Source: Malacoraja senta (taxonomy: Eukaryota). Taken from it: 62,000 bases of DNA. Below, in pieces: positions 25,835 through 47,500 of this stretch. The notes under the pieces were generated by a model. That model saw only the letters and a program-made list of their open reading frames with translations, was not told the DNA's origin and ran no database searches. The stretch is taken from contig CM075990.1 of NCBI GenBank assembly GCA_038087875.1, forward strand, positions 1,240,001-1,302,000, given 5' to 3'. A program made the position numbers and the translations under genes. The first letter of the stretch is position 1. Each line of letters begins with the position of its first letter.

Positions 25835-26038
25835 TGTAGATGAGATATGCATGTGCCTTTAACATAGTGACCTCATACCTACTAACCACTCCCCATATCA
25901 CAAGTATAACTACAACCTCCCCACCCACAGATCGCTCTCTAGTTCCTGTGACAGACCACGTACAGCTAGTGCAATGTATAATGATCCAGTATGAATAAAG
26001 ATAGTAAAGTAACGATGCCTCGTTATCAATCCTTTACA
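25835..26038 (+). repeat. Gypsy 5' LTR (204 bp)
   Basis: tgtagatgag...cctttaca; no difference from the 3' LTR found by eye; contains aataaa. Confidence 0.95.
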
Positions 26039-26130
26039 TGGTGCCAAATAACTTACCTTGCGCCTCCTGTTTATCGGTTTATCATTTAATTTTGACCCAG
26101 TTTTTTGTTTCCCCCGACCTGTTTCTTGTT

Positions 26131-27276
26131 ATGGCCTCTTCTGCCCGTAAGCCTGATGTGCTCGTTTTTGATTTCGACATCGCCCTTCGATGGGACATAT
26201 TCAAACGTGACTTTGAACACTATTTCACGATTGCCCATCCTGGCGCCACCCCCGCTCTCAAAGCCTCCCTGCTTCTCAACTTGGCTGGTCCCGACGCCTT
26301 GACTCGCTCTGACTTCTTCGTCTACGCTGCTGGAGAAACAGCTCGGGACCCGGTATGTCTGTTGGCTAAGTTTGACGCTATTTGTGACATTCCGACTAAT
26401 TGCATCTTAGAACGTTTTAAACTGTTAGCGCGGCGTCAGCTCCCTGGGGAATCTGCTGAGAACTATGTCATTGCGCTGCGGGACCTGGGCAGGCGCTGCC
26501 GCCTCGACACGTGGACCCCCGATAATGTCATCAGGGACCTACTGGTTTACGGTCTCCGTGATGAGAAGCTCAGGTCCGAACTTCTTCGCAAGCCGGATCT
26601 GACCTTGGCCGATGCCATGCACGCTACTCGCTTAGCTGACGCTGTTTCCTCGGCGGCGCCGCCGGCTGAGCAGGCGATCAACTTTGCCAGCACTCCTAGT
26701 TATCTCATGAACACACCCCAGTCGCGACCCCCGGGGTCGCTCGCTGCTCGAGGGGGACGCGCCCCGGGGTTCGGTGCTGCTACAAGGGGAGGTACCCAGC
26801 AAAGGTGCCCTAATTGCAACTTCACAACTCATCAGTTCAATGTATGCCCTGCTTTAGGTAAGACTTGCAATGCCTGCAATAAGTTGAACCATTTTGCTGC
26901 AGCTTGTCGTTCCCGTGGGAAGCCTGTCGCTGCTCGAAGGCAAAATTTAAACAACCTTCTACAGTCTGATAATGAGCTCAGCTCCCAGTACTATTCCGAT
27001 GAACATTCTGTTCCTACATCTAACTCATCTCAGGGGGAGACCAGCTTGTTTACCGTGTTGGACGCACCTGCTATGATAACGGATCCTTCTGTGCAAGTCA
27101 CTGTGAACAACTTGACCTTCACTGCCAAAATCGACACTGGGGCGGTAACCAATGTTATGTCAACATCCCTTTTCAACCAGATAAGAACTAATGAGCAGAT
27201 ATTTTCTCAGCTCAAACCTGCATGCCTACGGTGGGGAGATCCTTACTCCTGTGGGCAAGGCCACACTACACTGTAA
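26131..27276 (+). CDS. Gypsy gag plus N-terminal half of the aspartic protease
   Basis: MASSARKP...; zinc knuckles CPNC..H..CPA and CNACNKLNHFAAAC; protease motif KIDTGA. Confidence 0.9.
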   Translation: MASSARKPDVLVFDFDIALRWDIFKRDFEHYFTIAHPGATPALKASLLLNLAGPDALTRSDFFVYAAGETARDPVCLLAKFDAICDIPTNCILERFKLLARRQLPGESAENYVIALRDLGRRCRLDTWTPDNVIRDLLVYGLRDEKLRSELLRKPDLTLADAMHATRLADAVSSAAPPAEQAINFASTPSYLMNTPQSRPPGSLAARGGRAPGFGAATRGGTQQRCPNCNFTTHQFNVCPALGKTCNACNKLNHFAAACRSRGKPVAARRQNLNNLLQSDNELSSQYYSDEHSVPTSNSSQGETSLFTVLDAPAMITDPSVQVTVNNLTFTAKIDTGAVTNVMSTSLFNQIRTNEQIFSQLKPACLRWGDPYSCGQGHTTL

Positions 27277-30200
27277 GATACTGGAGACCACTCGGCCCCT
27301 CACCTTCTTTCTCCTCAATCGAAAATGCATTCCCCTGCTGGGGATCCAGGCATGCCAGGAAATGGGACTCGTGTCCTTCCACCGGGACATCCACCAGGTG
27401 CAGGCTCTTATGGACCCGCTGGCCGATTATCCCGACCGCTTTGATGATAAGCTAGGCAAACTACCCTGCAGCTACAAGATTGAAGTGGACCATAAGATCG
27501 TTCCTGTGGTCCATGCTCCTCACCGTATCTCCTTCGCCATGAGGGACAAAGTGGAGGCGACCCTACACAGTATGGTACAAATGGGCGTCCTAAAGGCGGT
27601 CGTCGAGCCCACCAGCTGGGTCTCTTCCATGGTTGTTGCTGCTAAAAAGGACATGAGTGAGATACGCATCTGCATCAACCCCAGAGACCTCAACCTGGCC
27701 ATTCGTCGCCCTCACTACCCTATGAGAACGGTGGAAGACGTCGCTGCACAGGTTGGTCCAGCAACGGTTTTTTCGGTCCTCGATGCCAAAAGCTCATTCT
27801 GGCAGATACCACTGGACGAGCGGTCGTCCATTTTGACAACTTTCGCCACCCCCTACGGAAGGTTTCGGTTCCTCCGAATGCCCTTCGGAATCAACTCTGC
27901 CAGCGAGGTATTCCAGCGAACCATGGAACAGTTGTTTTCAGATCTGCCTTGCGCCATAATTGTTGACGACATCCTCGTTTACGGTAAGGACGTTGCCGAA
28001 CACGATGTCAACCTCCGCCTGATCCTGGACCGGGCCAGGCAAATCAACTTGAAACTGAACCCCAAGAAGTGCCGATTCCGCGTCTCGGAGGTCACCTATG
28101 TTGGACATGTATTCACCGCTGAGGGGCTAAAGCCAGACCCGCAGAAAACGGCTGCCATCTCAGGGATGCCCCCTCCTACTAACGTGGCAGGCCTGCAACG
28201 CTTCCTCGGCTTGGTAAACTACCTGGGGAAGTTCATCCCCGACCTCAGTGAGCTCAGCGCTCCCCTGAGGGATCTGATCAAAAAAGACACGTCCTGGCTT
28301 TGGTTACCCAATCATCAGAAGGCATTTGACATTCTTAAGTCTAAACTGATCAGCACACCCACGCTCAAGTTCTTTGACCTGCAGCGTCCCATTGTCCTCA
28401 CCTGCGACGCCTCTCAATTCGGACTCGGTGCCGCCTGCCTCCAGGTCCATGACGGCCTGCAGCTGCCTGTCTCCTTCGCGTCCCGCACCATGACCGCCAC
28501 CGAACAGCACTACGCGCAGATTGAGAAGGAGCTACTGGCCGTGGTGTTTGCCTGCTCCAAATTCCGGGACTACATCGTGGGCAACACTTTCACCGTTGAA
28601 ACTGACCATCAACCACTTGTCACCATCCTCAACAAACCGATCCATGTGGCCTCATCACGTCTGCAGCGCATGCTGCTGCAGCTCCAGCGTTTCACGTTCA
28701 CGGTGGTTTATCGTAAGGGCAAGGACATGTTCGTAGCCGACACGTTGTCTCGCGCCCCGCTGACGTCCACTGCTCGCCACCAATACGAAATGTCTGAGTT
28801 ACTGGTACTACGATTGAACTTCGTCCCCTCGCCACAGATGAAGTCCCTGGTTGAACACACTACCAACGACCCTGCCCTGCAACAGCTGTCTGCCGTCATC
28901 CGGCAGGGCTGGCCTGACCGTCGCTCGGCACTGCCGGCTGGGGCCGTGCCCTACTTCCTGATTCGGGACGAGCTCGTCTTGCACGACGGCGTGGTGGTGA
29001 AGGGTCACAAAGTGGTCGTGCCCGCGGCGCTGCACGACCAATATTTTCAAGTCGCACACCGCGGTCACACTGGGGCCGAAGCCACTGTGTCTCTCGCCAA
29101 GAGCCAGTTCTATTGGCCGGATATGGCCAAGTACATCCGGGAGAGGGTCTCCTCGTGTTCCACCTGCAACAGCCGCGCCCCCCATCAGCAGCGTCAGCCG
29201 CTTCTACAGCAGCCCGTGCCCGGACTGCCCTGGATGGCGCTCGCCACAGACATTTTCGAGTGGCGGGGCAAACATTTCCTGGTACTCGTTGACTCCTACT
29301 CCAGCTGGTTTGTGGTTGACCGGCTGCCTTCCGTGACCTCTTCGGCCGTCATCGACAGGTTGTACCCTCACTTTAGCACTTTTGGCCCCCCGGCAAGCTT
29401 GCAGTCGGACAATGGCAGCCAGTTCACGAGCTCCGAGTTTAAAGCGTTCGCTTCCATATGGAACTTTCGCCATTTCACCAGCAGCCCGGAGTACCCGCAA
29501 AGCAACGGTTTGGCCGAGCGCGCGGTCCGCAGTGCTAAGCACTTGTTGGAACAGTGTGGTGGCATTAACTCCGACTTCCACCTGGCCCTCCTCAGCCTTC
29601 GGAACATTTCCCGCGACTCTGCCATGGGTTCACCTGCTCAGCGGCTCCTGTCTCGCGCTACCAGACTCCCGCTCCCTGTGGCCCAGCGCTCCCTCATACC
29701 CTCGATCCTCCCACCTGCGGCGGTTCAGAAACGCATTGCCTTCAGGCACGACGTCCAAAAGCGTTCCCATGACAGGTCCTGCCACCCGCTGCCGCGCCTC
29801 TTCCCCTGTCAAGTAGTCCATATGCAGACCACTCCCGGTCACTCCAAGCTCGCCACTGTCGTCGGCTCTGCGGGGTCGCCCAGGTCCTATTTCGTCGACT
29901 GCGCTGGGGCAATTTACCGACGGTCCCGCCAGCACCTTCGGCTCGTCAATGAGCCGCGTCCTCCTGCCGCCGATCCCTTTGCTCCCCCGCTGCCTGTTTC
30001 GCGTCCGGCCGTTGCTCTGCCCGTGATTCCTGACATGCCTCGCTCTGCTCCTCCTTCGCCCCTTCCGCTGCATCACACTCCGACTAGTCCTCGCTCGCCC
30101 GCCCGCGCTCTTCCCGGTCCCGGCCCCGCATCCCCTCCGGGTTCGGTGCCGCGGTCTCTTCCGTTTCCTCCCGTTTCTCCCTTTCAGGTTCGTCCTTCCC

Positions 30201-30301
30201 CGCCGGTGCCTCTTCCTCCTGCAGGAAGGGTGGATGGCGAGACGCGGACCCGGGCGGGACGTCTTGTCAAACCGCCTGACCGCTATGGCGATGTTGCTTA
30301 G
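27191..30301 (+). CDS. Gypsy pol (protease C-terminal half, RT, RNase H, integrase), uninterrupted for 1036 codons
   Basis: LDAKSSFWQ, RMPFG, IVDDIL; CDASQFGLG, YAQIEKELLA, TDHQPL, ADTLSR; HRGH..CSTC, ATDIF, SDNGSQF, NGLAER; C-terminal TRAGRLVKPPDRY. Confidence 0.95.
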   Translation: MSRYFLSSNLHAYGGEILTPVGKATLHCKILETTRPLTFFLLNRKCIPLLGIQACQEMGLVSFHRDIHQVQALMDPLADYPDRFDDKLGKLPCSYKIEVDHKIVPVVHAPHRISFAMRDKVEATLHSMVQMGVLKAVVEPTSWVSSMVVAAKKDMSEIRICINPRDLNLAIRRPHYPMRTVEDVAAQVGPATVFSVLDAKSSFWQIPLDERSSILTTFATPYGRFRFLRMPFGINSASEVFQRTMEQLFSDLPCAIIVDDILVYGKDVAEHDVNLRLILDRARQINLKLNPKKCRFRVSEVTYVGHVFTAEGLKPDPQKTAAISGMPPPTNVAGLQRFLGLVNYLGKFIPDLSELSAPLRDLIKKDTSWLWLPNHQKAFDILKSKLISTPTLKFFDLQRPIVLTCDASQFGLGAACLQVHDGLQLPVSFASRTMTATEQHYAQIEKELLAVVFACSKFRDYIVGNTFTVETDHQPLVTILNKPIHVASSRLQRMLLQLQRFTFTVVYRKGKDMFVADTLSRAPLTSTARHQYEMSELLVLRLNFVPSPQMKSLVEHTTNDPALQQLSAVIRQGWPDRRSALPAGAVPYFLIRDELVLHDGVVVKGHKVVVPAALHDQYFQVAHRGHTGAEATVSLAKSQFYWPDMAKYIRERVSSCSTCNSRAPHQQRQPLLQQPVPGLPWMALATDIFEWRGKHFLVLVDSYSSWFVVDRLPSVTSSAVIDRLYPHFSTFGPPASLQSDNGSQFTSSEFKAFASIWNFRHFTSSPEYPQSNGLAERAVRSAKHLLEQCGGINSDFHLALLSLRNISRDSAMGSPAQRLLSRATRLPLPVAQRSLIPSILPPAAVQKRIAFRHDVQKRSHDRSCHPLPRLFPCQVVHMQTTPGHSKLATVVGSAGSPRSYFVDCAGAIYRRSRQHLRLVNEPRPPAADPFAPPLPVSRPAVALPVIPDMPRSAPPSPLPLHHTPTSPRSPARALPGPGPASPPGSVPRSLPFPPVSPFQVRPSPPVPLPPAGRVDGETRTRAGRLVKPPDRYGDVA

Positions 30302-33646: not shown

Positions 33647-35427
33647 GAGGGAGAGGGAAAATGGGGAATTACAGACCAGTTAGTCTAACATCGGTAGTGG
33701 GGAAACTGCTAGAGACAGTTATTAAAGATGGAATAGCAGCACATTTGGAAAGTGGTGAATTCATTGGACAAAGTCAGCATGGATTTACGAAAGGTAAATC
33801 ATGTCTGATGAATCTTATAGAATTTTTCGAGGATGTAACTAGTAGAGTGGATAAGGGAGAACCAATGGATGTGTTATATCTGGACTTTCAGAAGGCTTTC
33901 AACAATGTTCTACATAAGAGATTAGTATACAAACTTAATGCACACGGTATTGGGGGTTCAGTATTGATGTGGATAGAGAACTGGCTGGCAGACAGGAAGC
34001 AAAGAGTAAGAGTAAACGGGTCCTTTTCAGACTGGCAGGCAGTGACTAGTGGGGTACCGCAAGGCTCAGCGCTGGGACCCCAGCTATTTACAATATATAT
34101 TAATGATTTGGACGAGGGAATTGAATTGAATCTCCAAGTTTGCGGATGACATGAAGCTGGGGGGCAGTGTTAGCTGTCAGGAGGATGCTAGGAGGTTGCA
34201 AGGTGACTTGGATAGGCTGGGTGAATGGGAAAATGCATGGCAGATGCAGTATAATGTGGATAAATGTGAGGTTATCCACTTTGGTGGCAAAAACAGGAAA
34301 GTAGACTATTATCCGAATGGCGGCGGTTTAGGAAAAGGGGAGATGCAACGAGACCTGGGTGTCATGGTACACCAGTCATTGAAAGTAGGCATGCAGGTGC
34401 AGCAGGCAATGAATAAAGCGAATGGTATGTTAGCATTCATAGCAAAAGGATTTGAGTATAGGAGCAGGGAGGTTCTACTGCAGTTGTACAGGGTCTTGGT
34501 GAGACCACACCTGGAGTATTGCGTACAGTTTTGGTCTCCAAATCTGAGGAAACACATTCTTACCATAGAGGGAGTACAGAGAAGGTTCACCAAACTGATT
34601 CCTGGGATGTCAGGACTTTCATATGAAGAAAGACTGGATAGACTCGGCTTGTACTCGCTAGAATTTAGAACATTGAGGGGGGATCTTATAGAAACTTACA
34701 AAATTCTTAAGGGGTTGGACAGGCTAGAATCAGGAAGATTATTCCCGATGTTGGGGAAGTCCAGAACAAGGGGTCACAGTTTAAGGATAAGGGTGAAGTC
34801 TTTTAGGACCGAGATGAGAAAATCATTTTTTATGTAGAGAGTGGTGAATCTGTGGAATTCTCTGCCACAGAAGGTAGTTGAGGCCAGTTCATTGGCTATA
34901 TTTAAGAGGGAGTTAGATGTGGCCCTTGTGGCTAAAGGGATCAGGGGTGTAGCTCCCAAGTAGTACACGAGGCCCGAGATCGTGGTTAAATATCGGGTTT
35001 AATTTCGGCTCCAACCAACCCCGTATTTAACCACGATCTCGGGCCTCGTGTACTATTTGGGAGCCACAGTGAGAACTCGTCCACTGCTTACTACTTAAGA
35101 GGTATTTCTTGGTTTCTTCTTAGTCATGCTTCTGTCTTTCTTTATGATCTTACTTATTGAACATTTAACTTATTTTGGCGGTGGATCCCCTTTGTGTTGC
35201 TTCCCTTTTCTTTGCTGCCCTCCAAGGTGCGCCCACAACCGTGCCCCCCCGGAAACTAAGTTGGCAATTTAGTTCTGCCCTTAGGAACGCCACTATTTCA
35301 GGTAGGAACCAAAAACCGTGAGGTTCAGAATTTAACTAACTGCCGATGTGGGGCAGTTACACTCCCACCAAATCACATGTGATTTCTTAGAACAACTTAA
35401 AGAGACATACATACTGCATATAAACAT
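33647..35427. repeat. Left arm of a ~1.78-kb inverted duplication (partner 45340-47117): CR1 body + BEL 3' LTR + PPT region
   Basis: Reverse complement of 45340-47117, sharing private CR1 lesions ([11 protein letters not shown] frameshift, EWENAW, YYPNG) and the same LTR/CR1 junction. Confidence 0.93.
34948..35361 (-). repeat. BEL/Pao 3' LTR, inverted duplicate (414 bp)
   Basis: Reverse complement tgtaactgcccc...gggagctaca, preceded by the PPT-like tttggtgggag. Confidence 0.9.
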
Positions 35428-35428
35428 G

Positions 35429-36203
35429 GTCTGGATGTGATTTTTGAGTTGCCTTGAGAACGAGCAGAGGACTGGGAGGATTTGGTGCGGTGAGATTTGA
35501 TCCTCGTCTTATCTGAGGCTGCAGACTTGAACACAGATTCTGTATCTTTAACACCTTGTTCTTCATCCACTTAACATTCACTCTTTCCCATGTTTAGATA
35601 ACCTCTTGCAGTTTTGATTATCTTCTTTGTTACTGCTTCACAGGTGTCTACTCTGCGACCTGTGTCATGATCTAGAATGTCGATGTGTCTCAGCTCTTCA
35701 TAAACAGCTTTCAGATTCCTTGAAGCATTGCTTACCTTGGTGATGTGTTCATTCAGCAGGTTGTTTGAGTATTGACTGCTCAGCGCCACTTTGGCGTCCT
35801 TAATGACAGCCTTCCACTTCTCGTAGCTCACACTGAAATGGTGTGCAACCTTTCTTACTTGCTCATTGTGCAGTTCTTGGCCCTTTTCCGTTAGCTTGCG
35901 GACTCTTTGGCCTCTTTGTGGCTCTTGTGAGGAAGTGTGGATATCATCTCCAGTGCCTTTGGTCGTTTGTGCCTTTGGGCAGTGCTGTTTCGTGTCATCA
36001 CCTTCATCATCTTCTCTGTCACTTTCAGGGGATAGCTCAAACTCTGACATTTTACTTGGTTTACTTTAGTTTGGTTTAAATCTAATATTTTCTTATGTTG
36101 AGTAAGTACCTAATTAATTAATAATTTTTATAGTGTTATCAACTTAAATCACTATGAGTGATAATTAAACAAATAAAGGTATCAACTCTTCCACAGGTAA
36201 GTT
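35429..36203 (-). pseudogene. Duplicated BEL leader and gag N-terminus (no DIRS insertion in this copy)
   Basis: ORF 35571-36050 (MSEFELSPESDRED...) is nearly identical to the start of 37459-39195. Confidence 0.9.
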
Positions 36204-38084
36204 GGGTCTTTCTTTCTTAAACGGCAGTGGCATCTCATAGTGATCCTCCTCCTTGAGCCTGATGCCTTTTTCCATCCTTGATAGGAATCGGAGGTCTTCT
36301 TGAGAGATGTTGCCTTCCTCTGAAATTCTTTCCACAAAGTCAGCTTCCAGCACCTTGATGACAGCTGCAGGTGAGACTACTTCCTTGATCTGTGTTCTAT
36401 AGACATAATGCACTTCGCTTGTGAGGTTTGAAGAGGACTGAATACCTGATATCACTTGCTTCACGACAACCTGGTGACTCACTCCAATAGCATCTCCATA
36501 ATCGAGACATAGGTTGCCATAGCCAACTACTCTCCAGCCCAAGTCGGTTCTCAGTGCAAAGGGCTGATTTTCTTCACCAGGTAGCACTTGTCTTGGGACG
36601 AGAGCTTGAGGACAGTTGTAGCCAATTAGTAAGCCGACGTCGCAGCTTTGATGTGGAGCTATGTCATCTGCGATGTGTTCGAGATGAGGCCATGCCTTTG
36701 CAGTCTCTGGTGAGGGAATATGATCTCTATTTGTAGGTATAAATTCTCTTGTGTAGGTCGCTGGCAGCTGGATTATCTTGTCTGAGTAAAATCCTCTTAC
36801 TTGTAGACCAGTCAGTTTCCTACAGGACACAACTGTGTTTCTTGAAGTCATTGTGGAGAGCTTTAGCTGAACTGGTTCGTTCTTCACGTGTAGAGCCTTT
36901 GCAGTGTCTTCTCGGAGAAAGGTTGTGTCACTCTGTGTATCCAGAAGTGCATACACAAGAACTTCACGATTAGGCTCACTTGTGGCTGACACCCACACTT
37001 GGATGATGGTGGACGTATGGGTGTCTTTGACGTGCTGGATGACTCTATTGGATGTTGCCTCAGGTGAGGTTCTTGTTGTCTTATCTTGTGATCGGTTCAT
37101 CTTGCCTTCCATTGACCGCTCACGGTCTCTTGCTTCATCAGGCCTTGTTAACATCCTTCCTTCCTTGGTGCGATTGTCGTGGAGGCAAGTTGGATGTCTC
37201 CTTTCACATGTATTGCAGATCATTCTGTTTTCACATTCCTTTGAGCGATGGCCGGACTTCAGACAGCCAAGGCACAACTTCCTTTCTTGAACAAACTTGA
37301 CTCGCTCAGAGACCGTCTCATCCATGAATTTATAACACTTGTGTAGACTGTGACCTTCCCTCTCACAGAACACACAGCTTGTGGCGACAGCCTTCTCATC
37401 AGAGTTTGTTACCAATACCTTTGCTCCAGGACCTCTGTTCATTGAAGCCTTGCTCTTCTCAACTTCCCTTGGTTTTAGAGCGTAGAGGGACGTTATTGGG
37501 TTGCAAGCAATTTTTTGCTTCACGTGTGAGGAACTTGACGAATTGGCTGAAGCTTGGGCACTTGTGACTTTGTTCTTCCACTTCTATGACTTTCCTGTTC
37601 CATCTTGAGGTCAGCCAGTCTGGAAGTTTAGCAAGCATTTTCTGATTCTCGTTGCAGTCATTGAGTACCTCAAGACCTCTAATCTGAGACATGGCGGCCT
37701 CACAGCTGCGAAGGAAGTCAGTGAGTTCTTGAAGTTCTAAACTGCCTTTGGAGCTTATCTTGGGCCATGAATCAAGCTTGTCTCTGAAGGCTTTGGCGAT
37801 GAGGAATGGATTGCCATATCTCTCTTCTAGGATGGTCCACGCTGCATGATAGGCGGACTCTGTGCCTAGCAGAAAGTAACTCTCTATGGCCTTCTTGGCA
37901 GCTCCACCCACATACCTTCGCAGATAATATATCCTTTCTTCACCTGGTAGGGTTTTCTTGTCAATTAATGTCTGAAAGCAAACCTTCCAGTCATTGAATC
38001 TGAGTGGGTCGCCATTGAACGTTGACGGTTCCGGTATAGGAAGACGACTCGCACTGATGGACTCTGCAAACACTCTCACAAGAG

Positions 38085-38114
38085 CTGAAGAAGGGTTTCG
38101 GCCCGAAACGTTAC
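38085..38114 (+). ncRNA. Minimal type I hammerhead ribozyme motif (best-preserved copy in the window)
   Basis: CTGAAGA, stem II GGGT-TTCG-GCCC, GAAA, palindromic AACGTT, then A; stem I is poorly formed in this truncated copy. Confidence 0.55.
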
Positions 38115-38177
38115 CTATTTCCTTCGCTCCATAGATGCTGCTGCACCCGCTGAGTTTCTCCAGCATTTTTGTGTACC
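38088..38177 (+). mobile_element. 90-bp Penelope-like terminal fragment inserted in BEL gag, 15-bp TSD
   Basis: ctctcacaagagctg at 38073-38087 and 38178-38192; the insert matches the reverse complement of 8594-8688. Confidence 0.9.
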
Positions 38178-39686
38178 CTCTCACAAGAGCTGCTGTGCTA
38201 TCTTCTTGTTTTGGAAGTGTCATAGCTTGTGGTTGAGGGTGATGCTTCGACAGGTTACTTTCTGGGTTGACTTCCTTCTTCTCCTTCAGAGAGACGTGTT
38301 GATAGAGCAGCTTGTCTATTTCATCGTCTGAGCATTCACTCTGTTTATATACTTGCTGTCGTGCCTTGGCAGCCTTTAGCTTCCCTATTTTCTTCAATCG
38401 CTTTATTTGCCTGCGTTTGGCCTCTAGCACCCTTTTTCTCTCTGCATCTTCCGCTTCAAGTCTTTCAAGTTCTATAATATGCTGTTCTTGCTCTAGCAGC
38501 ACTTGTAATGTGGCTTCATTGGCTGCAACTTCAGCAGCGGCTTCTAGTCTGTGTGCAGAAGACTGGCTTGAACGTCTGGATGTGATTTTTGAGTTGCCTT
38601 GAGAACGAGCAGAGGACTGGGAGGATTTGGTGCGGTGAGATTTGATGCTCGTCTTATCTGAGGCCGCAGACTTGAACACAGATTCTGTATCTTTAACACC
38701 TTGTTCTACATCCACTTGACATTCACTCTTTCCCGTGTTTAGATAACCTCTTGCAGTTTTGATTATCTTCTTTGTTACTACTTCACAGGTGTCTACTCTG
38801 CGACCTGTGTCATGATCTAGAATGTCGATGTGTCTCAGCTCTTCATAAACAGCTTTCAGATTCCTTGAAGCATTGCTTACCTTGGTGATGTGTTCATTCA
38901 GCAGGTTGTTTGAGCATTGACCACTCAGCGCCCCTTTGGCGTCCTTAATGACAGCCTTCCACTTCTCGTAGCTCACACTGAAACGGTGTGCAACCTTTCT
39001 TACTTGCTCATCGTGCAGTTCTTGGCCCTTTTCCGTTAGCTTACGGAATCTTTGGCCTCTTTGTGGCTCTTGTGAGGAAGTGTGGATATCATCTCCAGTG
39101 CCTTTGGTCGTTTGTGCCTTTGGGCAGTGCTGTTTTGTGTCATCACCTGCATCATCTTCTCTGTCACTTTCAGGGGATAGCTCAAACTCTGACATTTTAC
39201 TTGGTTTACTTTACTTTGGTTTAAATCTAATATTTTCTTATGTTGAGTAAGTACCTAATTAATAAATAATTTTTATAGTGTTATCAACTTAAATCACTAT
39301 GTGATAATAGTAAGATTAAACGAGAACTTACCAGTTTGAAGTATGATCTGTATTTTATGAGGAGTTACGATGAGGGATTACGTGAAGAACCCGCTCAGTG
39401 CGCAGGCGCGGCATACTTCCAAGCAGCGGTGTGGAATCACAGATAGACACAGGTATTTGAAGTAAACATAGTAAAGAAAAGGAGACATCAATTTATTAGT
39501 TTGATCCATATAATGAGGGTGGGAGCGGAGGGCACGTAATCCCTCATCGTAACTCCTCATAAAATACAGATCAAACTTCAAACTGGTAAGTTCTCGTTTA
39601 ATCTTACTATTTTACTTCGGAGTCACGTGAGTGACTACGTAAAGATTTCAAAGCTCTGTGATTTCAAACCGTGTAACAGTTTTATT

Positions 39687-40560
39687 TCACTCACTGCCGA
39701 AGTTCTTGAGGGAGGAAGTGCTATCGTAATCAACCGGTACGTCCATTCTCTCGGCCGTTGATGTAGATGCTGCCCTAGTGGAATGAGATTTAAATGTATT
39801 AGTATCTATTCCGGCAGCCTTCAGTACCTGTTTGAGCCATCTTGAAATGGTTTGGCTCATTACCCGGCCATGAGGTTTCTTGTGGCTGACCCATAAAGCT
39901 TTTTCACTCCCTCTGATATTGTGGGTTGTGTCTATATAATGTTGTAGATGGGTCACGACACACAACCGTGGCTCTTGTGGGTAGGCCCGGAATACCACCG
40001 GTGGATTAGCTGTTCCTGGCCTTCTTTGCTTCACCAGACCCTGTATGATGAATGTGATCTGATCTGGGGTGGTCACCATGTTGTCCAGCCTTACCTTGTG
40101 TAGTGACTGGACCCTCTGAGCGGATACGAGTGCCATCAACATGAGCGTCTTTAGTGTAGATTGCTCGAGGCTGAGGGATCTGGCTGGTGGCCATTCCCTG
40201 AGGTATGTCAGGACCACACTGATATCCCAAATATGGGTATACCTGGGTTTAGGGGGCTTGATATTATAAATGCCCTTCATCAGTTTTACCACCAGTGGAT
40301 GGGATCCCATTGCCTGTTGTCCTGCTGGTTTGAGATAAGCAGAAAGAGCACTCGCGCTGTGTTGATGGCACTGTAACTGATCCCTTCATCATGGTGTAGA
40401 TGGGCCAGGAACTCCAGTACATTGGTGGCTGTGGCTGTTGCATATGTTGTCCCTGTTTCCTGGCAGTACTTCTCCCATTTTCTTATGCTGATTAACTACT
40501 GCCTCTTGGTGGATGTTCGAAGGGATGCCGACATGGTGGTGATGGTTCGTTCGGACAATC
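39687..40560 (-). pseudogene. DIRS tyrosine recombinase, disrupted; C-terminal W...Y catalytic segment missing
   Basis: HPLVVKLMKG, MALVSAQRVQSL, LCVV, TISRWLK, HSTRAAS; no GW...TF..Y follows. Confidence 0.85.
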
Positions 40561-40581
40561 CCAGTTCCAGGTAAGGTCTAT

Positions 40582-41127
40582 TCAAAACCTGCAACCCAGG
40601 AGATTAATTTTCTCATGGCATGGGTGGCTTATGCCTGATACTGGGTGAGTTAATGATCCTGGATCACTGGGAAAGACCATTGGTGACTCAACCACCATGT
40701 CATGTAGAACCGGGATCCATGGCTGTGTAGGCCAGTCGGGCACCATCAAAATTCCAGAAGCAGAGTCCATCTGTATTTTGCGAAGTACCCGACTGATGAG
40801 GCAGAAGGGAGGGAAAGCATAGAAGAAGAAATTTCCCCCATCCAGCGTGAAGGCATCTACCGCTGCTGCCTCTAGGTCTGGTTCCCAAGCGACATACATA
40901 GGTAACTGGTGATTTAGTCGTGATGCAAATAAATCGATATCTGGCATTCCATACTGTTTAATAACTTTAGCAAATACTTTAGGGTTTAACATACATTCGA
41001 TGTTATCATTGAATTTGCGTGACCTGGTGTCTGCCACTGTGTTTAGCTTACCTGGTAGATAAGTAGCTGATAGCCAAATATGTCTGTCGACACACCTAGC
41101 CAAATCACGTTGACAAATTTGTTGCAT
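40582..41127 (-). pseudogene. DIRS RNase H C-terminus + Dam-like adenine methyltransferase domain
   Basis: YLPGKLNTVADTRSR, PDIDLFASRLN, VDAFT, FYAFPPF, PDWPTQPW. Confidence 0.85.
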
Positions 41128-42506
41128 GATAATGATTTTATGCCGCCCTTATGGTTAATATAAGCCACCACCGTAGTATTATCAATCTGTAACCGAACAT
41201 GCAAGTGCTGCATATTAGATACATATGCTTTTAAACCATAAAAGGCACCCAACATCTCTAGATAGTTAATGCCCAGTGTCAGTAGTAATGAAGACTCTAG
41301 GTTAGTCCATCTACCACCTGTGCTGGATATGGAGTTAGTTGCTCCCCAGCCTTGAGCACTAGCATCTGTTTGAAGAACTAAAGTAGGGTTAGTGATGATG
41401 AAACTATGCCAAATATTTTCTGCCCACCACTGTAGCTCTGATATTGCTTCAGTGGGTAATTTCATGACACGATCATAGTGACCTGTATGTCGTTTTAGTG
41501 CCTGTACCTTTGCTCTTTGTAAATTTGGATAGTGCAAAGGTCCGAATTGTGTAGCCGGAAATGCTGCTACCATTTTCCCAATCACTCTTGCTACTTGTCG
41601 AATAGTTGGTCGTTTGTTGACCATTAAATTGTTGCATGATTGTGCTAATGCAACCATTTTTTCCTTTGGCAAGGTAACAGTCATATGGACTGAGTTAATT
41701 GTGAAGCCCAGGTAGTCCATGATAGTGGATGGCTTCAACTTAGATTTATCTGGATGTAGGACGAACCCCAGAGTTTCGAGGAGCTGTTTTGTAGCTGATA
41801 CTGCTGCCACAGCCAATTCCATCATTTTCACTACTATCAGAATATCATCCAGGTACGCCATGACAATAAGTTTTTGTTTTCTTAGTATTGCCATGGCTAT
41901 TATCAATATTTTGGTGAATAATCTTGGGGCTGAAGTTAGCCCATTGGGCAATACTTTGTACTGCCACAGCTGCCCCAACCAGATAAATTTTAGGTATCTG
42001 CAATGATCCTTGTGTATGGGTATTAGATAGTAAGCATCTTTAAGATCAATGCTTGCCATGAAGTATCCTTTGGAAATCAGTTGTTTGGCAGTAACAAATG
42101 TCTCCATTTTGAAATGTATATACTTAACAAACTTATTTAGTGATGTTAAGTCAACGATGATGCGACATCCACCATCTTTTTTGGTTTTAGTGAATATATT
42201 TGATACAAATTCCAAAGGTTCATGTTTGGTCTTTTGGATGACCCCCTTTTTGATAAGTCTCACCAGTTCAGCTTGTCCCTCATGTTTCTCTTTGACGGAG
42301 GGAGAAAATACCCTTTGGGGCCAATGTTGAACTGGCGGCGATTTTTCTGACATGAACTGAATTTTATATCCACTAATGCTGTTGAGTATATACTTGTCAC
42401 CCGTGACAGTAACCCATGCTTCTTTAAACAAGTGTAATCTCCCCCCTGTTAGTAAAGCACCCTTATTCTCTATATGCTGGCAGGAACCAGACCCACCTAC
42501 CTCCAT
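41043..42506 (-). pseudogene. DIRS reverse transcriptase/RNase H (frameshift near 41100)
   Basis: IDLKDAYY, LPNGLTSAPRLFTK, YLDDIL, TDASAQGWG, INYLEM, IDNTTVVAYIN. Confidence 0.9.
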
Positions 42507-42508
42507 GG

Positions 42509-43600
42509 TTATTGGCGTTTCTTTTGTTTCCTCATGTTCTTGTAGGCTTTGCTGGCGATGTTGGGGGGTGGCGCATTTTCCATGGTGTCCGCTCTGGGCC
42601 CTGATCTAAAAAAGATCTTTGGGGATAAAATGCGGTCCCCATATTGAGGACGTCGACTGGTGGATGCCGTGGGGTGCTGCCGCTTGGGTATTGTAGGTCT
42701 TGGTTTGCTCGTCCCGGGGCCTGCCCTCATGAGGCCGAAAGTTTTCGCTGCTTCCTCCATGTCCCTCAGTTTCTTGTTGAGGTCTTTCCCAAATAATAGA
42801 GCATCCGTTTCTGCAGCTGGGGCTCTGCACAACCCAGCAAATTTGGGATTGAGGGCAGGTCTTATGTTTTCCCGCCGGAGATTATTGATCTCAAATTGAC
42901 GAATGTGTGACCCCACGTGCCCCCAGATCTGGCTGTTCATACTCTTGACTCTGAGGGCCTCACAGTTCTCTGGTGCTGTGTAGAGTTCTAGCGCCTCAAG
43001 AAGCACCTTCTCCTGCAAGAGCTTATTTGAAAGATGATTGATGCTGGCCGCCATTTTCGGTTCCAGCGGTCTTCCGGCACGTGGGGTTGCTACATAGCGG
43101 TCCACCACACCCAGCAGCTCTTCCTGCTCCTGCACCCCTTGCGTACTCCCGAGCTCGTCCGCCAGCCCCTGTTCCAGACCAGCCCAACCCTGGTCACCAA
43201 TGCTAGCCTCCAGTAATGAGGGAGCAGAGGGCAGTGCACAAGACACTGTGGAGGAGGTGCCTGACCTTCCTCCGCGAGAACGCTCTTTCTGCGTATCCCG
43301 CTGGAGCATCTGCTCCAAGAGCTGTTGTAAGCTCAGGCGGCTGTCTCTCCTCCGTTTAGGTGGAGACATGCCCCCATCCGACGAATCGGAAATTACCGGC
43401 CGGTTAGTTTTTCTGGTGGATTTTCTCCCTGTCCGCTGTTCAGGCATTAGCGGGACTGCGCTTGGCTCGGTCTCGGGGATAGCGGAGCGCTCTATGAGCA
43501 TTCCTGCCGCCTGTTGCTGCCCCCCTGAGATTGAACGCTCCTCTGGTGGAGTTGAGCTGGGGGCAGTTCTCTTCGATAGTCTTTTCCTGAGTGTACTCAT
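42509..43600 (-). CDS. DIRS ORF1 (gag-like), probably internally deleted
   Basis: Long ORF upstream of RT with PENC..L.V..N.QIW, RRENIRPALN and LLFG motifs. Confidence 0.75.
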   Translation of the reverse strand: MSTLRKRLSKRTAPSSTPPEERSISGGQQQAAGMLIERSAIPETEPSAVPLMPEQRTGRKSTRKTNRPVISDSSDGGMSPPKRRRDSRLSLQQLLEQMLQRDTQKERSRGGRSGTSSTVSCALPSAPSLLEASIGDQGWAGLEQGLADELGSTQGVQEQEELLGVVDRYVATPRAGRPLEPKMAASINHLSNKLLQEKVLLEALELYTAPENCEALRVKSMNSQIWGHVGSHIRQFEINNLRRENIRPALNPKFAGLCRAPAAETDALLFGKDLNKKLRDMEEAAKTFGLMRAGPGTSKPRPTIPKRQHPTASTSRRPQYGDRILSPKIFFRSGPRADTMENAPPPNIASKAYKNMRKQKKRQ

Positions 43601-44283
43601 TTTTGTATAGAACACACCACACAACGACTCTCCTTCTCCGTTAGATCTTCCACTACTTCAGTATACTTACCTAACGGTCCGTTTTTTAAATTGCAGCCGG
43701 AGAGCCTAACTCCAGCTGCCGCCGCTGTTGCACTGCTGGCGTAATGCCGCGCCTGCGCACTGAGCCGGTTCTTCACGTAGTCACTCACGTGACTCCGAAG
43801 TAAAATTAGACAAATAAAGGTATCAACTCTTCCACAGGTAAGTTACATATGCATTAAACACTTGTTAAGTAACAGAAATGCACCTTTAAATTACTGCTTG
43901 TTTTAACAGGATTTTTACAGTGTAACCATTAATAAACAAATTCTCAATATCAACACAGTGTGAGTATCAATGGTCTTCAATAAGGAAAGGTAAGTAAACA
44001 ACATAACTGAAATGCACATTATATCTCACTCTTGTGCAAAACACTTAAAGTCCTTTAGTTGTAGAAAATAACAACATCAACTTATTAAATGAAAATGTAG
44101 ATAATATATCAGTCTCTTGTGCAAAACACGAGTCTTTTTCCCTGTGGGCTTGCTCTTCTTGTGTTTCGGCGTAGGTGGTGGTAGAAGATACACACGCAGC
44201 ATGGATATGGTCCGTCGCTTCTCGGCTGCTGCCGTCTGGTGACGTCCTCCTCGGCTACTCATGCAGAGCAGTCGAGTTCTCAC

Positions 44284-44341
44284 TGTAGCTCCCAAGTAGT
44301 ACACGAGGCCCGAGATCGTGGTTAAATACGGTGTTTATTTC
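44284..44341 (-). repeat. Remnant 3' end (U5 side) of the BEL 5' LTR
   Basis: Minus strand gaaataaacaccgtatttaaccacgatctcgggcctcgtgtactacttgggagctaca, followed by the leader that runs toward gag. Confidence 0.8.
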
Positions 44342-45272
44342 CACTTACTGCGGGGTGGATTGCTTTGGACCATTCCACATCAAAGAAGGAAGGAAAGAGC
44401 TAAAGCGTTATGGACTATTACTTACCTGCATGTGTTCCAGAGCAGTACACATCGAAATGCTCGATAGCTTGACCACAGATGCCTTCATTAACGCCCTGCG
44501 TTCATTCATCGCCATTCGTGGAATGGTACGGCAAATAAAATGTGATCAAGGGACGAACTTTATTGGTGCAAGGCGTGAGTTTGTTGAAGCACTGAGAGAG
44601 ATGGATCAAGAGGAACTCAAGGAGCTGGGATGTGAGTTCATCATGAACACCCCAGCTTCAAGTCACATGGGTGGCGTTTGGGAAAGACAAATCTGCACCA
44701 TCAGAAGTGTCTTAATGGCTATTCTAGACCAGTCAGCCCAACAACTCGACTGCTCCTCTCTACGAACGTTCCTATACAAAGTCATGGCGGTCGTGAATAG
44801 CAGACCTCTAACTACTGATAACATAAATGATACATCCAGTCCAGAGCCCTTGACACCAAACCACATCCTGACCATGAAGTCTACGATCATATCCCCTCCT
44901 CCTGGGAAGTTCGTCAAGGAAGATCTTTACCTCCGCAAGAGATGGCGTCGAGTTCAACTCCTAGCCAACAACTTCTGGTCACGATGGAAAAAAGAGTATC
45001 TCTTAAATCTTCAGCACAGACAGAAGTGGACCAAAGACTACAGAAACGCAAAGGTCAATGACATTGTTCTGCTAAAGGATGATGCGACACCACGGAATCA
45101 GTGGAAGTTGGCAAGGATCAGTGAAGTTCATCCCGGGAAGGATGGAAAAGTGAGAAGAATCCAGTTGCTGATAGGTGACTCAACTCTCGATGATAATGGA
45201 AAGCGCACCTCCAAACCGGTTCACCTGGAGAGACCCATTCAGAAGATAGTAACACTGGTGGAAACAGACTGA
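44342..45272 (+). pseudogene. BEL/Pao integrase core + DUF5641-like C-terminus (N-terminus lost)
   Basis: TYCGVDCFGPF, CDQGTNF, HMGGVWERQI, VNSRPL, RWRRVQLLANNFWSRWKKEYL, RPIQKIV. Confidence 0.92.
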
Positions 45273-45405
45273 AGTCTCCAGTATCTTACGCTCACCTTAA
45301 GTCTATTAGTGGCCCATAGTTAGATAGTATTTTGAAATAATGTTTATATGCAGTATGTATGTCTCTTTAAGTTGTTCTAAGAAATCACATGTGATTTGGT
45401 GGGAG

Positions 45406-45819
45406 TGTAACTGCCCCACATCGGCAGTTAGTTAAATTCTGAACCTCACGATTTTTGGTTCCTACCTGAAATAGTGGCGTTCCTAAGGGCGGAACTAAAT
45501 TGCCGACTTAGTTTCCAGGGGGGCATGGTTGTGGGCGCACCTTGGAGGGCAGCAAAGAAAAGGGAAGCAGCACAAAGGGGATACACCGCCAAAATAAGTT
45601 AAATATTAAATAAGTAAGATCATAAAGAAAGACAGAAGCATGACTAAGAAGAAACCAAGATATACCTCTTAAGTAGTAAGCAGTGGACGAGTTCTCACTG
45701 TAGCTCCCAAGTAGTACACGAGGCCCAAGATCGTGGTTAAATTCGGGGTTGGTTGGAGCCGAAAATTAACCCCGTATTTAACCACGATCTCGGGCCTCGT
45801 GTACTACTTGGGAGCTACA
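45406..45819 (+). repeat. BEL/Pao 3' LTR (414 bp) with terminal 52-bp hairpin
   Basis: tttggtgggag|tgtaactg...gggagctaca|cccct; arms 45699-45750 and 45768-45819 match at 50/52 positions. Confidence 0.92.
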
Positions 45820-47500
45820 CCCCTGATCCCTTTAGCCACAAGGGCCACATCTAACTCCCTCTTAAATATAGCCAATGAACTGGCCTCAACTACCTTTTGT
45901 GGCAGAGAATTCCACAGATTCACCACTCTCTGCACAAAAAATGATTTTCTCATCTCGGTCCTAAAAGACTTCACCCTTATCCTTAAACTGTGACCCCTTG
46001 TTCTGGACTTCCCCAACATCGGGAATAATCTTCCTGATTCTAGCCTGTCCAACCCCTTAAGAATTTTGTAAGTTTCTATAAGATCCCCCCTCAATCTTCT
46101 AAATTCTAGCGAGTACAAGCCGAGTCTATCCAGTCTTTCTTCATATGAAAGTCCTGACATCCCAGGATTCAGTTTGGTGAACCTTCTCTGCACTCCCTCC
46201 ATGGCAAGAATGTGTTTCCTCAGATTTGGAGACCAAAACTGTACGCAATACTCCAGGTGTGGTCTCACCAAGACCCTGTACAACTGCAGTAGAACCTTCC
46301 TGCTCCTATACTCAAATCCTTTTGCTATGAATGCTAACATACCATTCGCTTTCCTCATTGCTTGCTGCACCTGCATGCCTACTTTCAATGACTGGTGTAC
46401 CATGACACCCAGGTCTCGTTGCATCTCCCCTTTTACTAATCGGCCGCCATTTGGATAATAGTCTACTTTCCTGTTTTTGCCACCAAAGTGGATAACCTCA
46501 CATTTATCCACATTATACTGCATCTGCCATGCATTTTCCCACTCACCCAGCCTATCCAAGTCACCTTGCAGCCTCCTAGCATCCTCCTGACAGTTAACAC
46601 TGCCCCCCAGCTTCATGTCATCCGCAAACTTGGAGATTCAATTCAATTCCCTCGTCCAAATCATTAATATATATTGTAAATAGCTGGGGTCCCAGCGCTG
46701 AGCCTTGCGGTACCCCACTAGTCACTGCCTGCCATTCTGAAAAGGACCCGTTTACTCCTACTCTTTGCTTCCTGTCTGCCAGCCAGTTCTCTATCCACAT
46801 CAATACTGAACCCCCAATACCGTGTGCATTAAGTTTGTATACTAATCACTTATGTAGAACCTTATCGAAAGCCTTCTGAAAGTCCAGATATAACACATCC
46901 ATTGGTTCTCCCTTATCCACTCTACTAGTTACATCCTCGAAAATTCTATAAGATTCGTCAGACATGATTTACCTTTCGTAAATCCATGCTGACTTTGTCC
47001 AATGATTTCACCACTTTCCAAATGTGCTGCTATTCCATCTTTAATAACTGACTAGCAGTTTCCCCACTACCGATGTTAGACTAACTGGTCTGTAATTCCC
47101 CGTTTTCTCTCTCCCTCCCTTTTTAAAAAGTGGGGTTACATTAGCTACCCTCCAATCCTCAGGAACTACTCCAGAATCTAAAGAGTTTTGAAAAATTATC
47201 ACTAATCCATCCACTATTTCTGGGGCTTCTTCCTTAAGTACTCTGGGATGCAGCCTATCTGGCCCTGGGGATTATTGGCCTTTAATCCATTCAATTTACC
47301 TAACACCACTTCCCGGCTAACCTGGATTTCACTCAGTTCCGCCATCTCATTTGACCCCCGGTCCCCTGCTATTTCCGGCAGATTATTTATGTCTTCCTTA
47401 GTGAAGACAGAACCAAAGTAGTTATTCAATTGGTCTGCCATGTCCTTGCTCCCCATGATCAATTCACCTGTTCCTGACTGAAAGGGACCTACATTTGACC
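45820..47500 (-). mobile_element. CR1 LINE body (RT region), 5'-truncated
   Basis: ORFs 45804-46616, 46618-46803 and 47214-47500 with [33 protein letters not shown]. Confidence 0.92.

Follow-up and report, generated by a model that had tools for sequence, protein, structure and literature searches.

LTR elements have been described as using three types of primer, namely a whole tRNA, a half tRNA and a self primer (accessible part of PMC6317226). The Belpaoviridae are assigned in the ICTV description an 18-nt primer-binding site (PBS) for a host tRNA-Arg or tRNA-Gly (PMC8742986). Self-priming is described, in the accessible portions of PMC7175516 and PMC4600332, for Tf1, in which the initial 11 bases from the element's own RNA act as primer and RNase H cuts between bases 11 and 12. 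In the plant Ty1/copia elements of the TAR lineage (Houba, Osr-1), self-priming has been predicted from complementarity between the PBS and the LTR (PMC6317226, same portion). No report of self-priming or of a splice-built primer in BEL/Pao elements was found in the literature within reach, which comprises parts of several sources and excludes Repbase, GyDB and subscription journals that may mention the PBSs described here: the terms PBS, primer, tRNA and intron do not occur in PMC3118150, nor do PBS, priming and tRNA in PMC554778, and the accessible portions of PMC3601003, PMC10886601 and PMC11042837 hold nothing on BEL/Pao priming.

The rearranged locus and its hairpin LTR

The window, i.e. 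the whole 62,000-nucleotide stretch of Malacoraja senta DNA that was analyzed, contains a BEL/Pao element that belongs to the Belpaoviridae by its domains: Pfam recognizes DUF1759 and DUF5641 in the window, and Peptidase_A17, RVT_1 (below the cut-off) and DUF5641 in other copies and relatives, with no protease domain named. The locus is a heavily rearranged, broken copy from which the RT/RNase H region is missing. On the minus strand, gag (DUF1759) and the start of pol occupy 36196-39308, with a short insertion at 38085-38180, and the 5' leader occupies 43804-44272, where it is broken at ~43806 by a DIRS-type retroelement. The latter (39306-43806, minus strand), which has an RT, a tyrosine recombinase and terminal repeats, lies outside the priming system; its end sequence also cuts short the 3' LTR in a copy of an unrelated BEL family (L057). 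The C-terminal part of the integrase (DUF5641; 44342-45272, plus strand) has the opposite orientation to the leader and gag. On the same strand lies a polypurine tract (PPT; 45393-45405), which adjoins the 5' side of a 414-bp 3' LTR (45406-45819). A second LTR of this type (34948-35361, minus strand), identical to the first at 396/414 positions, lies within an inverted duplication (33647-35427 / 45340-47117) that takes in host flank, and hence the two LTRs represent a single insertion end that was duplicated. Elsewhere in the window, a gag-pol of Ty3/gypsy type at 26008-30301 (plus strand), with RT, RNase H and integrase, is unrelated to the BEL/Pao finding.

The LTR at 45406-45819 ends in a hairpin with a 17-nt loop (45751-45767), in which 50 of the 52 positions of one arm (45699-45750) are matched in the other (45768-45819). 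Its RNA fold is computed at -99.9 kcal/mol (z -17.9), and beyond a 3-nt bulge the pairing goes on for six further bases (AGCAGT with ACTGCT); RNA folding allows a 63-bp helix to form in this variant. Directly 5' of the hairpin is the 11-mer CGAGTTCTCAC (45688-45698, plus strand), which recurs at 44273-44283 (plus) and 35069-35079 (minus), giving three occurrences in the window against 0.03 expected. Read on the minus strand, 44273-44283 constitutes the PBS GTGAGAACTCG, which directly follows the terminal CA of a 5' LTR remnant (44284-44342, minus strand) and lacks a TGG. This remnant comprises only the 3' arm and a few loop bases; it stops where the loop would be, much as a hairpin 5' LTR broken at its tip would. 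The poly(A)-type hexamers are AATAAA at 44334-44339 (minus), ATTAAA in the 34948-35361 copy and ATTAAC in the 45406-45819 copy. The arm comparison and the above readings bear out the description in the first-pass annotation of the hairpin, of the exact complementarity between the 11-mer and the sequence after the remnant, of the missing TGG and of all three hexamers.

Ordinary copies and the split 11-mer

A search of the same genome with the window LTR gave 35 scored candidates, and 30 loci were fetched; most copies match only bases 1-284 and 339-412 of the LTR. In this census, which contains about 5 likely duplicate pairs, 26 of the 30 loci carry a splice donor, three are of the hairpin type and one was unread. 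The donor, GTATG, follows ...GGACGAG in all 26 donor-type loci; 23 of them keep an acceptor 107-113 nt further on, behind a pyrimidine tract, with the AG itself present in 22. The 11-mer is split in these ordinary copies into CGAG in exon 1 and TTCTCAC in exon 2, and the full 11 bp with the PBS can be obtained only from the spliced junction. The ordinary LTRs are 475-525 bp long, run from TG to CA, are accompanied by a PPT and have a stem of merely 5 bp after the primer; intact pairs are flanked by 5-bp target duplications. The PBS GTGAGAACTC follows each of the ten 5' LTRs read, the eleventh base being G in seven, and a TGG of the tRNA type is found at none of the ten. The split 11-mer of the ordinary copies, taken together with the recurrence of the PBS, indicates that the PBS is genuine and that the hairpin is a derived form. 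The reading of the PBS as a rearrangement product was rejected, as the same site follows 10/10 5' LTRs. An older subgroup of the family (L240, L241, L238/L239), sharing large internal deletions and a 46-bp duplication in U3, constitutes a non-autonomous subfamily that has kept both the intron and the PBS.

Placed on this layout, the window LTR is a rare variant without the intron and with an inverted copy of U5. The last part of exon 1 occupies 45676-45691 and the exon-exon junction falls at 45691/45692, where ordinary copies continue with the donor GTATGT; the 11-mer consists of 4 nt of exon 1 and 7 nt of exon 2 and would form the 3' end of the primer. The 5' arm is the reverse complement of U5, i.e. 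the sequence of minus-strand strong-stop DNA, and is missing in ordinary copies. The loop consists of the R sequence that normally follows the primer and leads into the poly(A) hexamer, and the 3' arm is the ordinary R-U5 end of the LTR. As the hairpin variant has lost the intron, the latter is not visible from the window copy. Each of the three hairpin LTRs is a 3' LTR preceded by a PPT; they lie at two rearranged loci that both contain inversions (internal in the second, L235/L236) and have no intact 5' LTR within the ranges fetched. The hairpin was found in no other family among the BEL/Pao families examined.

These observations bear on the structure originally proposed, in which transcription starts near 45688 with the 11-mer as its first bases, and a stem of ~63 bp is the R-U5 structure of the family and natively primes reverse transcription. 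The presence of the hairpin variant at two separate loci and the capacity to form the long helix are in its favor, but the hairpin is seen in just 3/30 loci and, within the ranges fetched, in no element with two intact LTRs, and the ordinary copies lack both the additional arm and a contiguous 11-mer. Moreover, some relatives have clear TATA boxes 111-130 nt upstream of the donor (-130 in L082 and -111 in L086; of the nine families examined, these two have a clear box and two others a weaker one). Neither the long stem as a family feature nor the proposed start is supported by this comparison; the transcript probably does not begin with the 11-mer, and the structure as originally drawn is hardly credible.

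Co-variation and intron loss among BEL/Pao families

Relatives came from the same genome, with 33-51% integrase identity, and from 78 metagenome loci; two scans of viral contig collections found none. About half of the 40 own-genome stretches gave no clear LTR pair, and most of the 78 metagenome loci have no LTR-PBS junction and were left out of the resulting count of 23 families. Also excluded were chance matches inside coding sequence (L125, L137, L140, L147), additional members of counted families (L087, L115, L118, L122, L082, L083), two loci with acceptor and PBS whose donor lies off the contig (L076, L094), and loci with a candidate PBS that lack the needed part of the LTR (L080, L098, L100, L108, L121, L132, L142). 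The search regions of L081, L086, L099, L113 and L136 are approximate spans rather than exact LTR limits.

In 14 of the 23 families scored, the complement of the PBS is interrupted by a GT-AG intron, which is 90-1321 nt in length. The spliced junction in these 14 forms 10-14 bp with the element's own PBS (11 in nine of them), as against 5-9 bp unspliced, and is made of 5-7 nt of exon 2 and 4-7 nt of exon 1 in perfect pairs; the pairing starts with the very base that follows the LTR, which is where the end of a primer has to lie. Unspliced pairing amounts to just 5-6 bp in six of the 14, and in these the matching donor is the unique best fit to a donor consensus scored without regard to the PBS. 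In the other eight the acceptor's own AG gives 8-9 bp unspliced, and splicing is perhaps unneeded there. Three of the 23 families reach at least 10 bp contiguously, without splicing. When PBSs were swapped among families, each being allowed to pair with any uninterrupted site or across any GT-AG intron, at least 10 bp was reached with the own LTR in 17/23 families, a figure biased upward by the recovery of the metagenome families through a GTNARA-type PBS motif, and with a foreign PBS in 11/506 swaps; none of 100,000 permutations reached the own total. A subgroup of family C has gained one T in exon 2 and one A in the PBS (L049, the same as L194). Thus, the PBS and the element's own LTR junction co-vary across families, the very check that had been suggested for the 11-mer.

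The six families below 10 bp comprise family D with 7 (11 of 12 with one mismatch), L090 and L093 with 9 each, and three families of a separate branch whose PBS starts with TTAA or TTAG and which show just 3-5 bp of own pairing. L066, L040 and L032 form a well-supported branch with 4-5 extra bases (TTAA, TTTAA, TTAG) after the LTR; in L066 and L040 a 7-8-nt complement is present in the LTR when read from the extra-base offset. L128 (4309-4780) has a contiguous 11-nt complement, one base further on a donor-like GTATGT, and then 460 nt of LTR; its intron is possibly placed after the primer. In the L045 and L031 families the LTR termini depart from the usual TG...CA, the LTRs of family C beginning with TA and those of family B ending with TA. 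Family E LTRs (L060, L061, L062) are unusually long (~1176 bp) and hold a TGG-starting segment, which we take to resemble a tRNA-type PBS, as if a piece of another LTR element had been captured in U3.

It might be argued that the junction-PBS pairing is structural or regulatory, serving packaging, dimerization or splice sensing, and that a fragment of host RNA is the actual primer, in keeping with the ICTV description of the Belpaoviridae as tRNA-primed (PMC8742986). Our tRNA comparison, which covered 23 distinct genes of seven isotypes with no Arg or Gly, showed CCA ends pairing with the PBS over at most 2 nt and best internal matches of 4-6 nt. Further, the PBS changes from family to family along with the element's own LTR, and the pairing starts exactly at the first post-LTR base; a host RNA primer is hence very improbable. 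The lack of a tRNA-type site, the genuine nature of the PBS and its co-variation with the own LTR together make self-priming of the window family likely. This part of the first-pass proposal is upheld, whereas its 63-bp stem and its placement of the 11-mer at the very start of the RNA are unsupported.

Copies that have lost the intron provide a record of splicing. In family C, the GT-AG segment is precisely missing from both LTRs of two separate elements (L229, L230), one of the four LTRs having a one-base change at the joint, and L082 is an intron-less twin of L081; precise loss of this kind was seen in 0/27 family-B loci. The existence in two families of copies missing exactly the intron shows that the LTR intron is spliced. 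In an integrase tree of unnamed loci only, in which hairpin locus L067 stands for the window family and the root is not known, the contiguous forms need four changes and fall at no fewer than four places among intron-bearing branches, a distribution that fits repeated intron loss. In addition, a contig from a relative follows the element precisely as far as the family-B donor, beyond which its sequence is foreign, though this is a single contig whose RNA status is a guess. The spliced LTR junction is absent from the RNA reads recovered (22 for family A and four for family B, from ~6% of one run), a depth too low to show or exclude either the junction or a start site. The 22 family-A reads are all sense and cover the intron; eight of the 12 at the acceptor derive from a copy in which AG has changed to AC, and the other four are unspliced with the acceptor intact.

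A candidate splice-assembled primer and its relation to known systems

Given the above observations, we consider it fairly probable that the element uses Tf1-like self-priming by an internal primer that is assembled by splicing and cut just after the 11 paired bases. Transcription would start ~80-105 nt upstream of the donor, and the intron of the 5' LTR would be spliced out, upon which the junction could pair over 10-14 bp with the PBS located on that RNA, next to a short stem in R and a poly(A) signal. The RNA would then be cut after ...AC, leaving the capped 5' piece as primer, and the strong-stop DNA would cover only the post-primer R-U5 before jumping to the 3' LTR, in which the intron is usually unspliced. 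Under such a scheme daughter elements would keep the intron, and splicing of the 3' copy would give rise to intron-less lineages. Stems of 4-9 bp begin 0-1 nt after the primer across families, with a summed score of 122 against a shuffle mean of 101 (reached in 0/300), although individually they are weak, only 12 of 22 families being in the top fifth relative to shuffles. The base after ...AC is G in 18/22 families, and a poly(A)-type hexamer occurs within 50 nt after the primer in 17/22. A point against the model is that it requires splicing to act on this intron in the 5' LTR but to spare it in the 3' LTR, which is unexplained; the question raised is how a single RNA could lose the intron at its 5' end and retain it at its 3' end.

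The hairpin LTR is probably an aberrant product of reverse transcription that marks the cut site. Its 121-nt tail, which comes after the 7 bases of exon 2, can be read as 47-52 nt of minus strand followed by post-primer sequence from base 1-6, a description that fits 118, 116 and 117 of the 121 positions in the three hairpin copies. Strong-stop DNA, of a predicted 74 nt and with the spliced primer still attached, would fold back on its own GGGTT/AACCC stem, with its 3' end at the return point of the hairpin, be extended through U5 and the primer, and then jump to exon 1 of the 3' LTR; this series of steps would reproduce the exact sequence of the hairpin LTR, including the absence of the intron. 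The fold-back has little stability (-5.7 kcal/mol in total), the junction is ambiguous over 5 nt, and the U3 tree fits one origin of the hairpin LTRs or several alike. An alternative account, of the hairpin only, is that two DNA-level template switches at CGAG and GGGTT homologies in a 5' LTR produced it, in which case it would be no record of priming. The reverse complement of PBS plus U5 consists of the same letters as the spliced primer plus strong-stop DNA, and the rearranged state of both hairpin loci also speaks for this account. Nevertheless, such a double switch needs a PBS beside the LTR, and the three hairpin LTRs, all 3' LTRs behind a PPT, have no adjacent PBS that could template the junction at the DNA level, such that an event in a 5' LTR would call for an extra transfer; both switch points would also have to fall on the donor and the predicted cut site. 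We therefore regard this account as rather unlikely. Read as a reverse-transcription product, the hairpin variant would supply sequence-level evidence on where the template ended, which is beyond the reach of co-variation alone.

The same geometry is the only, and indirect, evidence in this analysis on whether the primer acts in cis or in trans. In a trans scheme, a separate short spliced LTR transcript, trimmed after ...AC, would act like a tRNA on unspliced genomic RNA. This would explain the retention of the intron without differential splicing of the two LTRs; the hexamers that closely follow the primer in most families mean that short spliced RNAs could form, and an unspliced contig running from intron to leader (X4) exists, its RNA status being a guess. 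Against this, the return point of the hairpin lies on the first 1-6 post-primer bases, as if the template ended there, and the families with contiguous complements share the geometry and would pair in cis. Priming in trans is accordingly quite improbable, and the cis-acting spliced primer is the form favored here. We see about an even chance for the broadest version of this model, in which tRNA priming has given way, in a widespread BEL/Pao lineage of animals, to a spliceosome-assembled two-exon LTR primer; replication would then depend on splicing of the 5' intron and retention of its 3' twin, and the hairpin would be a fossil of the intermediate in which primer and strong-stop DNA are joined, marking the cut site. 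A splice-made primer, if real, would be a new route tying reverse transcription to nuclear RNA processing, would break with the rule of unspliced packaging of retroelement genomes, and would explain the missing PBS calls in BEL/Pao annotation.

On the whole, the families considered here resemble described Belpaoviridae (Semotivirus) in the gag-RT-RH-IN order of DUF1759, RT, Peptidase_A17, integrase and DUF5641, in LTRs within 0.2-1.2 kb, and in the PPT and short (5-bp) target duplications, but the 18-nt PBS for tRNA-Arg or tRNA-Gly of the ICTV description is absent from them. The TAR lineage is comparable as a case of predicted self-priming outside the Tf1 clade; it belongs to another superfamily and kingdom, and the accessible part of its description does not mention an intron-split primer. 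A close likeness is to Tf1/Tf2 of Schizosaccharomyces pombe, Tj1, the Tf1/sushi group and Tcn1 of Ty3/gypsy, which share a PBS adjoining the 5' LTR, an own-LTR complement of ~11 nt, the lack of a tRNA and, less surely, a short stem after the primer. The element is not itself a member of the Tf1/sushi group, since its domains are those of BEL/Pao and not a chromovirus-type Ty3/gypsy pol; only the proposed mechanism is Tf1-like. The Tf1 complement comprises the first 11 nt of the RNA and its primer is released by an RNase H cut, whereas here the complement is assembled across an intron and probably lies ~90-110 nt inside the RNA, with the putative cut placed by the hairpin junction. It is this proposed splice-assembled, internal nature of the primer that differs from known self-priming.
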